From an uncultured Candidatus Berkelbacteria bacterium (GTDB lineage Bacteria > Patescibacteriota > UBA1384 > XYA2-FULL-43-10 > CAINNR01): a stretch of DNA of 64,000 nucleotides. The notes beneath the pieces are model-generated. The model was not told the origin of the DNA and did not search any database. It worked only from the letters and a program-made list of their open reading frames with translations. Location of the stretch: NCBI GenBank assembly GCA_903851235.1, contig CAINNR010000030.1, positions 13,210-77,209 on the forward strand. The letters are read 5' to 3'. The position numbers and the translations under genes are program-made. Below are positions 31,106-43,361 of the stretch, in pieces (the stretch's first letter is position 1; every line of letters begins with the position of its first letter).

Positions 31106-31125
31106 GTCCCGCGGATGAGCGGGAC
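31106..31125. terminator. hairpin GTCCCGCggatgaGCGGGAC, T-run on the minus side (terminator for the 31141-31722 gene)
   Basis: 7-bp GC stem flanked by A-runs on plus, which read as T-runs on minus. Confidence 0.55.
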
Positions 31126-31140
31126 AAAAAATAACCAGAA

Positions 31141-31722
31141 CTAGTCTTCTCGGAATGCTTTTATGCCGAAAAGTCCTTGACAGTATTTACATTGGGCGGC
31201 TTCAAGTGGTGTGGTGCCTTGGGTCGGAAACAAAACTCTGCGATCAACAACGTGTAATCCTGTCGGAGACAGTTGGCATCGTTGGCATTGCTCAATCGGC
31301 AAAATGATCGATGGTATTTGTTCAGGCTGCCTGCCTTCAACCACCTCAAGGACGATCACGACCTCTCTATTTTCTTCGCTTTTGTTTCTCCACAGACTGT
31401 AGGTTTTTTGGTCGCTACTCAATTCTCTCAAAGCTTCTAAAAGAGTCACAATCTGAATTCCGTCTACCAATGAAAAGTCTTCCATTCTCCAGAATCTAGG
31501 ATCTTCCAGTTCTTGATTGGTAAGGCGAAGCAATTCTCCTCCGGGAGCGGTTCTGACGATTTCAGTTGTCGGAAGCAATTGATTGTCACTCAGAAAAAAG
31601 ACGGGGAAAATGACAACGTTTTGATCCTGCTCTTGAGAGATAAGAATCTGTCCATTTAGATGGCAACAATCGATTGCCGTCGGAACAGAGTAAGGTGCAT
31701 AATTTCTCGTTCTGCGAATCAT
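31141..31722 (-). CDS. hypothetical protein with C-terminal CxxC...CxxC zinc-ribbon-like motif (193 aa)
   Basis: ORF with its own terminator. CQRCQ ... CKYCQ near the C-terminus. Confidence 0.5.
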   Translation of the reverse strand: MIRRTRNYAPYSVPTAIDCCHLNGQILISQEQDQNVVIFPVFFLSDNQLLPTTEIVRTAPGGELLRLTNQELEDPRFWRMEDFSLVDGIQIVTLLEALRELSSDQKTYSLWRNKSEENREVVIVLEVVEGRQPEQIPSIILPIEQCQRCQLSPTGLHVVDRRVLFPTQGTTPLEAAQCKYCQGLFGIKAFRED

Positions 31723-39273: not shown

Positions 39274-40482
39274 ATGCCGAAGATTGAGTATGAAAATCCA
39301 AGTGATTTAGAAGCAATAAAGCCGAAAAAGAAACGGGGAAAGTTTGGGTTGATAATATTGATAGTTGTGATTTCATTAATTTTTGGCTCGGTTTCCGGTG
39401 TCGGCAGCATTATTTTGTTGTCAAAAAATAATGGCAGTTTGGCAAAAAAAATCGGTTTTATCAATTGGGACAATTTAACTATCCCGCTGACAGAAACAAA
39501 AAAAATTAATGTTCAAGAATCGAGCGCGATTATCGATAGCGCAAATAAGGTTTCTCCGGCAGTGGTTTCAATCGTCGCTAAATCTCAGGTGCAAACGATT
39601 TTTGGTGATACCTCTCAATCAGAGAGTGCCGGCACTGGTTTTATTATCACTTCTGATGGTTTGATTTTAACCAATAAGCATGTCGTGTCTGATGCCAATG
39701 CAACATATACGGTTATCGCCGCCGACGGCAAAAATTATGACGGCAAAATTCAATCAATCGATCCATTAAATGATTTGGCTGTGGTAAAAATTACTGCCAC
39801 CGGACTTCCGGTGGTTGAGCTTGGCGATTCTGATCAACTTTCAGTCGGCCAGTGGGTGGTGGCAATCGGTAATGCTTTGGGACAATATCAAAACACGGTG
39901 ACTGCCGGAGTGATTTCGGCCAAACAGCGGGATATTCAAGCCAGTGATTCAACTGGTGCAGCAACTGAAAATCTTTCAGGAATGTTGCAAACCGACGCGG
40001 CAATCAACTCCGGAAATTCCGGTGGGCCATTGGTTAATTTGCAAGGCCAGGTTATTGGAATTAACACTGCGGTTGCGTCCGGTGCGCAGGGAATCGGTTT
40101 TGCGATTCCGATCAATGCCGCCAAAAGCGCTATCGATTCAATCAAAAAAACCGGCAAAATTACTCGACCATATCTGGGGATCCGATATCTACCGATTACT
40201 CCGGATATCGCCAAAACCAATAATTTAAAATATGATTACGGCGCACTTGTAGTTCGTGGAAACGGCATCGGACAAGTCGCTGTTGTTCCCGGTAGCCCAG
40301 CCGACAAAGCTGGAATAGTTGAAAATGATATTGTTTTGGAGATTAACGGTGAACGAATTGACAGTACAAACAGTCTAACCTCATTGCTTTCAAAATATAA
40401 CGTAGGCGATACTGTGTCGCTGAAAATCTCTCACGCCGGCAGCGAAAAAACAGTCAAAGTCATGTTGCAATCGATGTCGTAG
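39274..40482 (+). CDS. htrA: HtrA/DegP-family serine protease with PDZ domain
   Basis: Catalytic triad context (TNKHVV, D, GNSGGPLVN) and C-terminal PDZ domain. Confidence 0.9.
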   Translation: MPKIEYENPSDLEAIKPKKKRGKFGLIILIVVISLIFGSVSGVGSIILLSKNNGSLAKKIGFINWDNLTIPLTETKKINVQESSAIIDSANKVSPAVVSIVAKSQVQTIFGDTSQSESAGTGFIITSDGLILTNKHVVSDANATYTVIAADGKNYDGKIQSIDPLNDLAVVKITATGLPVVELGDSDQLSVGQWVVAIGNALGQYQNTVTAGVISAKQRDIQASDSTGAATENLSGMLQTDAAINSGNSGGPLVNLQGQVIGINTAVASGAQGIGFAIPINAAKSAIDSIKKTGKITRPYLGIRYLPITPDIAKTNNLKYDYGALVVRGNGIGQVAVVPGSPADKAGIVENDIVLEINGERIDSTNSLTSLLSKYNVGDTVSLKISHAGSEKTVKVMLQSMS

Positions 40483-40486
40483 TATT

Positions 40487-41320
40487 TTAATTTGATATCC
40501 GAATAAATCTGTTTTTGCCCGAGTAATCTTTCAAAATTTCGATATTTTCAAAATCCTTGGTGGCAGATCGCGCCAGGGATTTTGCGTTTCTCGGATCGAC
40601 TTCGATTAAAATTTGACCGCCATCGGCAAGAAAATTTTTCGCCTCAGATAAAAAATTCTTTATTATCATCTCACCATTATTATCGGCAAAAATCGCCGTT
40701 TGTGGTTCGTGTTTTATTTCCCTGTCACTTGATCCGTCAATCGGAACATAGGGTAAATTGGCAACTATCAAATCAAATTTTCCGCTGATTTTTTCAAAAA
40801 GATTGGATTGGATAAATTCAATTTTAACTTGGTGATTATTGGCATTTTTTCTGGCTACTATCAATGCTTTTTTAGAAACATCGGATGCGAAAAAAATGGC
40901 GGTTGGCAGATTACAATTGGTGGCAATCGAGATAATTATATTTCCACTACCGCTGCCAATATCGAGAACAGTTTGTGGTTTGTGATTGGAAGTTTGTAGA
41001 AAATCCAAACATTTCTCGACCAGCAGTTCCGTTTCCGGCCTTGGAATCAAAACATCTGGTGTCAACAAAAAATCCAAACCAAAAAATTCCTTATGGCCGG
41101 TAATATAGGCGATCGGCTCGTGCAGCTTCCGCCTGGCGACCAATTTGCTTAGATCATCAACTTCAATATCCGATAATTCATATTCGGGATGCGCCAATAA
41201 AAATTCTCGCGATTTTCCGCTTGCGAATTCCAACAAAATTCTTGCATCAATCTCCGCCGACAAAATTCCGGCGGATTTTAATATATCGGTAGAGTTTTTT
41301 AATAGTTTCGATATTGACAT
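40487..41320 (-). CDS. prmC: release-factor glutamine N5-methyltransferase PrmC/HemK
   Basis: SAM motif LDIGSGSG. DLIVANLPYV is the NPPY-type motif. Lies downstream of prfA. Confidence 0.85.
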   Translation of the reverse strand: MSISKLLKNSTDILKSAGILSAEIDARILLEFASGKSREFLLAHPEYELSDIEVDDLSKLVARRKLHEPIAYITGHKEFFGLDFLLTPDVLIPRPETELLVEKCLDFLQTSNHKPQTVLDIGSGSGNIIISIATNCNLPTAIFFASDVSKKALIVARKNANNHQVKIEFIQSNLFEKISGKFDLIVANLPYVPIDGSSDREIKHEPQTAIFADNNGEMIIKNFLSEAKNFLADGGQILIEVDPRNAKSLARSATKDFENIEILKDYSGKNRFIRISN

Positions 41321-41382
41321 TTTTTACTACAATTGATATAAACAAAGTAGTCGAAACATCCTGCTGTGTCCGGAGGGGACAG

Positions 41383-41658
41383 ATGAATCGAGTAGTTGGT
41401 GTTTTGCAAAGAAACGATGAAAATGGTCTCTATGGAATTTTATTGGATCAGGATACCAGCCTCTGGTTATGTATTAGCCATTTCTTTGCACCAATGTACT
41501 TGGCATTCCTTGATAGAACGCTTCTGGGGAGGAAAGTTGAGCTGATTTATCCGATCAATCCTTTGAAGAATAGCAGACCGGAAAAAACTGCTATCCGACT
41601 GACTGTTGTGCCTGATGATACGCCAAATTGCTCTGGAGAAGAGTATATTGAGGATTGA
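41383..41658 (+). CDS. hypothetical protein (91 aa) on the opposite strand between prfA and prmC
   Basis: GGAGGGG RBS 4 nt before the ATG. Strong terminator immediately downstream. No family recognised. Confidence 0.5.
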   Translation: MNRVVGVLQRNDENGLYGILLDQDTSLWLCISHFFAPMYLAFLDRTLLGRKVELIYPINPLKNSRPEKTAIRLTVVPDDTPNCSGEEYIED

Positions 41659-41666
41659 ACTTACAT

Positions 41667-41690
41667 GACCGCCAAATAGGCGGTCTTTTT
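41667..41690 (+). terminator. intrinsic terminator GACCGCCaaataGGCGGTC followed by TTTTT (plus orientation)
   Basis: 7-bp GC stem followed by a T-run. The T-run overlaps the prfA stop codon on the opposite strand. Confidence 0.65.
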
Positions 41691-42753
41691 AGTTCTTTTC
41701 AGCCAGCAATCTTTTTCGATCTTCGGAAATTAGAGCGGAAATTATCGGTTCTATGTCACCAGCCAAAATTTTTGGAATTCCGTGCCAACTTAGGTTAACA
41801 CGATGGTCGGTAATTCTATCTTGGGGAAAATTATAAGTTCTAATTTTTTCCGATCGATCGCCGGTGCCGATTTGTGATCGACGAGTATCGCCAAGTTCCT
41901 TTTGCTTCTTCTCATCTTCAGCCGCTAAAAGTCGTGAACGCAAAATCGACATCGCCTTGGTTTTATTTTTCAATTGTGATTTTTCGTCTTGACAGGTTAC
42001 GACCATCCCGGTTGGCAAATAGGTAATTCGAACCGCCGAATCGGTGGTATTAACTGACTGTCCGCCTGGCCCGGAGGAGCGAAAAACATCAATTCTAATA
42101 TCCCCAGCTTTAATTTCAATATCCTGTTCTTCGGCTTCCGGCAAAACGGCGACGGTAATCGTTGAGGTGTGAATTCTGCCGGCTTTCTCTGTTTCCGGAA
42201 CACGTTGGACTCGATGAACACCGGATTCGTACTTCATTTTGGAATAGACTTTGTCACCGGAAATTGAAAAGGTCAGCGATTTGATTCCACCAATGCTGGA
42301 ATTTTGAGCGTCTAAAATTTCAATCTTCCAACCCTGTTTTTCGGCGTAACGCGAGTACATACGGAAAATTTCGCTGCCAAAAAGTTCCGATTCGTCACCG
42401 CCAGCCGCCGGCCGAATCTCAATGAGTACATTTTTTTCGTCATTCGGATCTTTCGGGATTAATAGCAGTTCCATCTCTTTTTCCAATTCGGTTTTTTGCG
42501 CTCTTAAATTCGGTAGTTCTTCGGCGGCGATTTCTCGAAATTCTTCATCTTCGCCATTTTGGAATTCCTCATTTTCACGAATATTTTTCACAAGCGCCAA
42601 ATAGCGCTCAATCTTTCTGGCATCGTTTTCTAAATCGGCTTTTTGTTTTGATAATTGCGAAAGTTTTTCGCTATCGGAAAGATTAGCCGGATCGGAAAGT
42701 TCCTTTTCCAGCTGTTTAAAATCTGCCAATAATTTTTCGAGTTTTTCTTTCAT
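41689..42753 (-). CDS. prfA: peptide chain release factor 1
   Basis: GGQ motif ([23 protein letters not shown]) and PxT-type recognition region. Confidence 0.95.
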
Positions 42754-42810: not shown

Positions 42811-43050
42811 TTATTTATCTGCGGTTTTGGTTTTTGCTTCCCTGAATTTGGTTGCGGCTTCTTGCCTTGCGCGGAATTTATCAATTCGGCCGGCGGTGTC
42901 CATCAGCTTTTCTTTGCCGGTGAAAAACGGATGACATTGTGAACAAATTTCAACTTGAATTTCCGGCACCGTGGCGCCAACTTCAAAAGTATTCCCGCAT
43001 GAGCAGGTAACTTTGGCTTTATGATATTGTGGGTGAATGTCTTTTTTCAT
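42811..43050 (-). CDS. rpmE: 50S ribosomal protein L31
   Basis: [10 protein letters not shown]...CSCGNTFEV...[11 protein letters not shown]. Confidence 0.9.
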
Positions 43051-43136: not shown

Positions 43137-43361
43137 TTATTCCAGTCGCGATGCAATGACCAAGCCGACGGCGATAGCGAAGTTGTCAGCGGTGAATTCC
43201 GAGATATCGATTCCGAAGAGTTGCGCTGTCGCGGTGTAGTAAGTCTTTGACCAATCGAGGATTTCTCTGTGTTTCTCCGAAGTGATCTTTGAATCCAAAT
43301 TTGATCGTAACATTATTTTAGCCTGATCCAGAATCATGGCAAAAAAATCAGCTGGGTGCAT
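43137..43361 (-). CDS. small hypothetical protein (74 aa)
   Basis: GGAGG RBS 7 nt before the ATG. Has its own terminator. Confidence 0.45.
   Translation of the reverse strand: MHPADFFAMILDQAKIMLRSNLDSKITSEKHREILDWSKTYYTATAQLFGIDISEFTADNFAIAVGLVIASRLE

Follow-up and report, generated by a model that had tools for sequence, protein, structure and literature searches.

The window analyzed here is a 64,000-nucleotide stretch of DNA from an uncultured Candidatus Berkelbacteria bacterium, a member of the Patescibacteria or candidate phyla radiation (CPR), and our subject within it is a small gene that lies between prfA and prmC and is read from the opposite strand. prfA, which encodes peptide chain release factor 1 (RF1), and prmC, which encodes the corresponding methyltransferase, belong to a minus-strand block opened by rpmE, the gene for ribosomal protein L31. 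An earlier note, made from the letters of the DNA alone, had described prfA and prmC as a minus-strand pair separated by 368 bp that contain a plus-strand open reading frame (ORF) of 91 amino acids (aa). Family matches to TIGR03534 and NF001859 confirm both genes, and the ORF lies as described within a gap that spans 41321-41688. Coordinates of the genes and predicted signals are collected in Table 1.

Table 1 Genes and predicted expression signals at the rpmE-prfA-prmC locus of the window
Feature	Coordinates	Strand	Basis or details
prmC (release-factor N5-glutamine methyltransferase), 277 aa	40487-41320	-	TIGR03534 RF_mod_PrmC, 1.1e-72; PrmC_N + MTS
prfA (peptide chain release factor 1), 354 aa	41689-42753	-	NF001859/TIGR00019, NF001859 at 1.4e-150; PCRF + RF-1
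rpmE (ribosomal protein L31), opens the minus-strand block	42811-43050	-	PF01197, 7e-32
Small gene, 91 aa plus stop, ATG at 41383	41383-41658	+	ORF and homologues
Predicted sigma-70-like promoter of the small gene	41314-41342	+	-35 TTGACA 41314-41319, 17-nt spacer, TG 41334-41335, -10 TATAAA 41337-41342
Shine-Dalgarno sequence GGAGGGG	41372-41378	+	4 nt 5' of the ATG
Predicted intrinsic terminator of the small gene	41667-41690	+	hairpin GACCGCC-aaata-GGCGGTC 41667-41685, TTTTT 41686-41690

A spacing of 368 bp is unusual for prfA and prmC. Among loci in which prfA is the direct upstream neighbor of prmC, the set to which the gap statistics were restricted, the median prfA-to-prmC gap is 14 bp in 76 genome loci and 28 bp in 67 metagenome loci, and gaps longer than 250 bp occur in 7 and 11 of these, respectively. 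The locus otherwise resembles the canonical prfA-prmC (hemK) operon, with an orthodox RF1 and PrmC and with rpmE preceding them as in many CPR relatives; it departs from that operon, whose gap is only 2-3 bp in the sister lineages L003 and L092, by the length of the gap and by the predicted opposite-strand transcription unit inside it. The genome has a low GC content (0.41), the best-matching prmC/prfA loci come from metagenome-assembled genomes (MAGs) labelled Patescibacteria or Candidatus Berkelbacteria, and prmC of the window has no Shine-Dalgarno-like sequence upstream. The earlier note had also reported a local GC content above that of the flanks, a claim that did not hold: the insert has a GC content of 0.413, compared with 0.380 for prmC, 0.423 for prfA and 0.411 for the window as a whole, which places it at the 49th percentile among 368-bp windows, and its G+C content at third codon positions (GC3) is the same as that of the neighboring genes.

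The small gene is flanked by a full set of predicted expression signals. Its putative promoter has the hexamers and the spacing (within 16-18 nt) of a sigma-70-type promoter, as a consensus match only; it agrees with the consensus at 11 of 12 positions, lies 41 nt 5' of the ATG and predicts a transcription start at about 41349. Sites of this 11/12 type number 11 on the two strands of the window, compared with 2.7 +/- 1.3 in shuffled sequences. The -35 box overlaps the start codon of prmC (41318-41320). The ribosome-binding site and the strong terminator reported earlier were both recovered at the expected places. The terminator hairpin, with a stem of 7 bp (6 of them G-C) and a loop of 5 nt, folds at -19.6 kcal/mol (z-score of -7.5), and its T-run extends into the stop codon of prfA (41689-41691, TAA on the minus strand). 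It has the makeup of an intrinsic (Rho-independent) terminator and ranks among the three best terminator-like sites of the 30-50 kb region, each of which lies directly 3' of an isolated gene. A 25-nt tandem direct repeat at 41295-41344 (72% identity, TTTTTTAATAGTTTCGATATTGACA / TTTTTTACTACAATTGATATAAACA) covers the prmC start and the small-gene promoter, with the -35 box in copy 1 and the -10 box in copy 2; it may be due to chance.

Homologues of the small protein are few. Run exhaustively against 1.84 billion cluster representatives, phmmer identified two full-length homologues of 88 aa, P0002 (E-value of 1.8e-8) and P0003 (3.4e-8), and a profile search of 5.8 billion proteins added only P0008. 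The family therefore comprises four lineages, with lengths of 88-91 aa, and the three homologues are 36-42% identical to the window protein. Four further phmmer hits (P0004-P0007) were dropped as long tandem-repeat or RCC1 proteins whose scores were summed from short stretches. A word-indexed search of 5.8 billion proteins returned a single match, a 99%-identical copy from the same population. It lies on the 2.2-kb ENA contig L001, where 1 nt in 2165 bp departs from the window sequence. The profile search supplied the one source name on record for the family, 'hypothetical protein Athens101428_462' of Candidatus Berkelbacteria bacterium Athens1014_28. The single L001 difference is a T to G change at its position 1167 (window 41431), which replaces Tyr17 by Asp; family members have Y or F at this site (motif GL[YF]G).

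Beyond these proteins, no match to the window protein was found in Pfam, NCBIfam, PHROGs or PADLOC (the PADLOC and PHROG searches extending to E <= 1), and Pfam gave only sub-threshold hits, to DUF7131 (E-value of 0.021) and LBR_tudor (0.12), for one homologue each. A family-profile scan of JGI metagenome contigs yielded no match. The family hidden Markov model (HMM) detected no further copy in the window or in the carrier loci, and neither a copy nor a pseudogene remnant in six-frame translations of 160 prmC-linked loci, including L002, L004, L087 and L093. Literature searches on prfA/prmC antisense transcription turned up only papers on Listeria PrfA, and those combining Berkelbacteria with release factors returned nothing relevant. 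As far as these searches reach, the family appears to be tiny, unannotated and seen solely within a subclade of Candidatus Berkelbacteria. The earlier note had regarded a conserved annotated family in relatives as one finding that would speak against its reading; half of this holds, as relatives do carry the ORF, but in a family that is unannotated ('hypothetical protein').

The pattern of conservation indicates that the small gene is protein-coding and under purifying selection, not merely the template of an antisense RNA. Invariant positions in the family alignment include G6, L16, G18, W28, C30, the stretch LLG(K/R)KVE, Y56, I71, L73, V76 and P81. The proportion of nonsynonymous differences (pN) is 0.26-0.44, compared with a saturated proportion of synonymous differences (pS) of 0.65-0.78, and the ratio of nonsynonymous to synonymous rates (dN/dS) is about 0.21 between the copies in L082 and L086. 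A fortuitous ORF, with the conserved unit acting instead as an antisense RNA or as a structured spacer or leader for prmC, is scarcely credible on these data. Such an RNA could make use of the predicted promoter and terminator, it would be antisense to any read-through transcript, and the minus-strand spacer folds slightly better than shuffled sequences (z-score of -2.6). Set against this, protein identity of 36-42% extends over the full length while the DNA is barely alignable (blastn matches the window to L082 or L086 over no more than 28-38 nt), the start, the length and the Shine-Dalgarno sequence are conserved, and pN lies below pS. Rfam reported nothing at the gathering threshold across the whole window and only sub-threshold noise in 41200-41800, and, with the terminator set aside, the fold z-scores do not stand out; a structured RNA in the insert was accordingly rejected as a candidate (Rfam negative, z-scores of -1.7 and -2.6, largely driven by the terminator).

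Position and signals are conserved together with the protein. In L082 and L083, two NCBI MAG contigs that encode P0002, the order is prmC(-), ORF(+), prfA(-), and L086, which encodes P0008, shows the same layout followed by rpmE; the synteny comparison proposed in the earlier note thus places the ORF in the same slot in relatives. P0003 is encoded on a contig of 1 kb (L085), where the ORF is divergent from prmC and the downstream DNA is other than prfA. The ORF is head-to-head with prmC in all four lineages and abuts the prfA stop codon in three; in the window it stands tail-to-tail with prfA. A promoter-like arrangement of the form TTGAC(A/T)-17/18-(TG)-10 is equally placed in L082, L085 and L086, the -35 box falling within the first prmC codons in 4/4 lineages and a TG preceding the -10 box in 3/4 copies (TG-a-TATAAA at 41334-41342 in the window; L086 has TA). 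Likewise, GGAGG precedes the start codon by 5-8 nt in all four copies, as GGAGGA or GGAGGT in the three homologous loci.

At the 3' end, each of the four copies is closed by a G+C-rich hairpin and 5-8 T (7-8 T in L082, L085 and L086), although the stem sequences differ between lineages, and in three of them (the window, L082 and L086) the T-run shares nucleotides with the TAA of prfA. On the prfA strand, no U-tract follows the hairpin in any of the four lineages, so the terminator should be functional solely on the ORF strand. The L086 hairpin is also markedly strand-biased, at -12.2 kcal/mol on the ORF strand versus -4.4 kcal/mol on the prfA strand, owing to G·U pairs. This bias, combined with the missing prfA-strand U-tract, suggests that the terminator has been selected for the small gene and not for prfA.

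Structural prediction with AlphaFold2 gave a predicted local distance difference test score (pLDDT) of 66.6 and a predicted template modeling score (pTM) of 0.60 for the window protein, and values of 80.9 and 0.73 for the homologue P0008, with the same topology. The order of elements in both models is beta1-beta2-beta3-helix-beta4-beta5, as in the oligonucleotide/oligosaccharide-binding (OB) fold, and the product is predicted to be an OB-fold-like, closed beta-barrel of five strands with a helix between strands 3 and 4. A fold of this type suggests a binding module. The product is further predicted to be cytoplasmic and acidic, with an isoelectric point (pI) of 4.8 in the window and 4.2-5.1 across the family, and with no signal peptide or membrane segment predicted in the family proteins.

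Sequence and structure comparisons did not connect the protein to a named family. At E <= 10, Pfam returned no OB-fold family for any member and nothing at all for the window protein, and a PDB sequence-profile search at the same limit gave no match; Foldseek comparisons against the PDB were not significant (E >= 0.4). Alignment by hhalign to Escherichia coli IF1 was not significant either (P = 0.08), despite a suggestive beta2-beta3-helix-beta4 register, nor was that to E. coli CspA (P = 0.64). No membership was found in the named OB-fold sequence families (S1, IF1/eIF-1a, cold-shock domain (CSD), SSB or tRNA_bind). The protein therefore differs from the known small stand-alone OB-fold proteins (S1/IF1-like, cold-shock domain, SSB/PriB-type and CsaA/tRNA-binding) in having no sequence membership among them and in being acidic overall.

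To place the gene in its evolutionary context, its distribution was compared with a neighbor-joining tree of prfA. The tree places the group ((window,(L003,L004))93,L002)95 as sister to (L082,L086)100, with 95% support for the whole clade; in the outgroup L005, prfA and prmC are about 10 bp apart. The slot holds the small gene even in relatives whose prfA is 70% identical to that of the window, and carriers stand on both sides of the deepest split in the prfA tree, which indicates that the gene is ancestral to this Berkelbacteria subclade. The simplest history we infer has a single gain at the base of the subclade and no fewer than two later losses or replacements, the prfA-prmC junction of the sister lineages being a variable slot. 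The gene is missing in L003/L089 and L092, where the gap is 2-3 bp. The small proteins are 59% identical at a prfA identity of 88%, and 39-42% identical at a prfA identity of 70-71%; divergence of the small protein thus tracks that of prfA, which fits vertical descent. No direct or inverted repeats were found flanking the insert of the window.

These results divide the suggestion of the earlier note that the gene is a possible antisense or regulatory insertion. A predicted independent opposite-strand gene within the rpmE-prfA-prmC block, in a layout compatible with antisense or collision control, is retained; a foreign or recent insertion is not, given the background GC content, the lack of repeats and the occupation of the same slot in relatives.

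How prmC is expressed is central to the interpretation of this arrangement. No terminator-like site was found on the minus strand between prfA and prmC, and the window insert contains no sigma-70-like minus-strand promoter for prmC with at least 9/12 matches. At the head of the block, a promoter-like site (43088-43060) lies ahead of rpmE, as does the terminator that closes the preceding gene (43111-43086). This terminator and a second one on the minus strand (31106-31125) are strong and canonical, and they directly follow the isolated genes 43137-43361 and 31141-31722, respectively; terminators consisting of a hairpin and a T-run appear to be in use on the minus strand of this genome. Since no terminator follows prfA, and since prmC has neither a recognizable promoter nor a Shine-Dalgarno sequence, prmC most likely owes its transcription to read-through from rpmE-prfA. 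In that case, the operon mRNA would contain a 368-nt spacer antisense to the entire mRNA of the small gene, and RNA polymerase occupying the small-gene promoter would cover the start of prmC, so that reciprocal interference between the small gene and prmC is predicted. The terminator of the small gene would at the same time bar antisense transcription from the prfA coding sequence. Head-on transcription, or antisense pairing, between prfA-to-prmC read-through and the small gene is plausible in such a layout.

An arrangement of this kind is known from Staphylococcus aureus as the noncontiguous operon, described for menE-menC-MW1733-ytkD-MW1731 (Saenz-Lahoya et al. 2019, reviewed in PMC7154746; atlas in PMC11034616). 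There, the mRNA of the embedded gene serves as both messenger and antisense, and mutual repression operates via polymerase collision and RNase III (PMC7154746, PMC11034616). The defining feature, a reversed gene among co-oriented genes, is present in the window, in L082/L083 and in L086. As in S. aureus, a protein gene is reversed between two co-oriented genes of linked function that usually adjoin and share a transcript, and the embedded mRNA would be complementary over its full length to an untranslated spacer inside the operon mRNA. The two cases differ in that the present host is an uncultured CPR bacterium, the genes concerned are a core translation-termination pair, and co-transcription of prfA and prmC across the insert and mutual repression are predictions here; according to the atlas, noncontiguous operons are unpredictable without a transcriptome (PMC11034616). 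prfA-prmC is not among the S. aureus cases. The Listeria excludon (PMC7154746) is a more distant parallel. It shares opposite-strand neighbors with overlapping transcripts, the expression of one disfavoring the other, but it relies on a long antisense untranslated region (UTR) that covers the coding region of the neighbor, whereas the terminator described here ends at the prfA stop codon and overlap would arise from operon read-through across the small gene. Taken as a whole, we give a probability of about 0.6 to the account in which the small gene in the 368-bp gap is genuine and transcribed independently, neither noise nor a recent insertion, and in which prmC is reached by read-through in a noncontiguous-operon-like layout.

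The same junction is occupied differently in other relatives. L002 (3689-3961, the same as L088), L087 (2179-2461) and L093 (557-1064) carry a different unit of 273-508 bp on the prfA strand, which is GC-rich (0.48-0.54, compared with about 0.39 for the locus). This unit, for which Rfam gave no match, features a conserved extended -10 box (TGCTATATT or TGCTAGATT) directly after the prfA stop codon and an ORF of about 60-66 aa with its own Shine-Dalgarno site; the ORFs of L087 and L093 are 55% identical over 27 aa, and that of L093 appears frameshifted. A conserved hairpin, CCTAGGCC..GGCCTAGG with TTTTTCT, lies directly 5' of the prmC ATG in L002, L087 and L093 and is terminator-like on the prfA strand, so prmC would need its own start signal in these lineages. 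A structured RNA in the GC-rich gap of L002 was considered and rejected (Rfam negative, z-scores of -2.2 and -1.4); the gap looks more like a small same-strand coding unit. In L004 (1534-1981, the same as L090 and L091), a 448-bp AT-rich gap with a GC content of 0.31 contains an extended -10 box (TGTTATAAT) together with the strong Shine-Dalgarno sequence GGAGGTGGTGGT and three ORFs of 20, 41 and 57 aa opposite to prfA, which are unlike the 91-aa family; no terminator hairpin is present in this gap.

Additional small ORFs were observed at or near the junction. The motif CP(F/N)C(G/K)(K/L)PFRPGCC marks a short ORF resembling a zinc ribbon, which occurs in L085 (886-1044, minus strand), just past the terminator of the small gene and at the expected place of prfA, and again in frame 2 of the L093 unit (557-1064). 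Opposite-strand ORFs of 206 and 179 aa also lie between prfA and prmC in a Saccharimonadales MAG (L080, 3280-4001) and in a MAG labelled Gammaproteobacteria (L039, 834-1513), respectively; as these bacteria are unrelated, the junction has been occupied by a reversed gene more than once. In L082 (9402-9773) and L083 (6983-7354), an extra gene for a nuclease-like PDDEXK_3 protein of 123 aa is located between rpmE and prfA on the same strand, a further sign that the block tolerates small insertions.

Such variability underlies the main rival to a noncontiguous operon, namely a split operon, in which the small gene is a real passenger in a permissive, fast-turnover slot, prmC is transcribed from an unrecognized promoter of its own, and there is neither antisense or collision coupling nor a role in termination. 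We consider this possible, though the less likely account. It fits the diversity of the slot in close relatives (empty in L003/L089 and L092, the GC-rich unit in L002/L088, L087 and L093, AT-rich mini-ORFs in L004/L090/L091), the unrelated opposite-strand ORFs of L039 and L080, the terminator-like hairpin and T-run on the prfA strand right before prmC in L002, L087 and L093, and 9-10/12 minus-strand promoter-like matches inside the gene in L082, L085 and L086. However, those matches are not positionally conserved, and the window insert has no prmC promoter at >=9/12. Moreover, all four lineages have the -35 box of the small gene within the first prmC codons, and wherever prfA is the neighbor the terminator of the small gene stops exactly at the prfA stop codon, which looks like tight co-adaptation rather than casual occupancy.

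Very unlikely, in our view, is a mobile or selfish cargo, that is, a toxin/antitoxin-like, defense or phage-derived gene repeatedly inserted at the junction by horizontal transfer. The small gene is an orphan, evolves fast and sits in a variable slot, its patchy distribution on the prfA tree could stem from transfer among Berkelbacteria by recombination in conserved flanks, and L082/L083 carry the PDDEXK_3 gene in addition. Nevertheless, the models, partner gene and mobile hallmarks of anti-phage defense, phage or toxin-antitoxin systems were not found: there is no PHROG or PADLOC match, no second gene that could form a pair and no flanking repeat, GC and GC3 are identical to those of the flanking genes, and the family HMM found no copy elsewhere in the window, the carrier loci or the 160 prmC-linked loci. 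The scaling of small-protein divergence with prfA divergence likewise fits vertical descent rather than repeated transfer.

Several points nevertheless weigh against a noncontiguous operon with a role in termination. The promoter and terminator calls, though conserved, are consensus matches, and the minus-strand matches in L082, L085 and L086, variable in position as they are, leave room for a weak or non-canonical prmC promoter inside the small gene, in which case there would be neither read-through nor antisense pairing. The hairpin might also pause or stop polymerase arriving from prfA despite the missing U-tract. Close relatives (L003/L089 and L092) manage without the gene, which makes it dispensable, and its link to termination may be positional only. 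Finally, the acidity of the protein (pI of 4.2-5.1) is atypical of a nucleic-acid-binding OB fold. The idea that the small protein is a binding module, for a nucleic acid or a protein partner, that is tied to translation termination is accordingly speculative. In its most specific form, an acidic OB-fold protein would be a lineage-specific modulator of translation termination in Berkelbacteria, for example by binding RF1 or PrmC or by mimicking a nucleic-acid ligand, and a noncontiguous rpmE-prfA-[gene]-prmC operon would couple its synthesis reciprocally to that of PrmC, with antisense transcription switching the methylation state of RF1; we regard this proposal as doubtful.

A separate observation concerns the opposite end of prmC, where an htrA-like protease gene (39274-40482, plus strand) converges on it, with the two stop codons 4 nt apart (40483-40486). 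Because this junction is so short and lacks a terminator-like hairpin, the 3' ends of both transcripts should overlap. The convergence of htrA and prmC is also kept in L002, L004, L005, L082 and L083.

The tiny protein family is new, while the genomic arrangement is of a known kind and its regulatory layout is plausible. In one CPR clade, the prfA-prmC junction emerges as a slot in which tiny lineage-specific genes turn over fast, and it is useful for observing the birth, replacement and loss of small genes. If the interpretation as a noncontiguous operon is true, this would be the first example from a CPR bacterium and the first to involve a core translation operon. If prmC is indeed transcribed by read-through, an embedded antisense gene would control a universally conserved pair, RF1 and the methylase that tunes its activity, and the noncontiguous-operon concept would extend to the ultra-small CPR bacteria, whose regulation is almost unknown.

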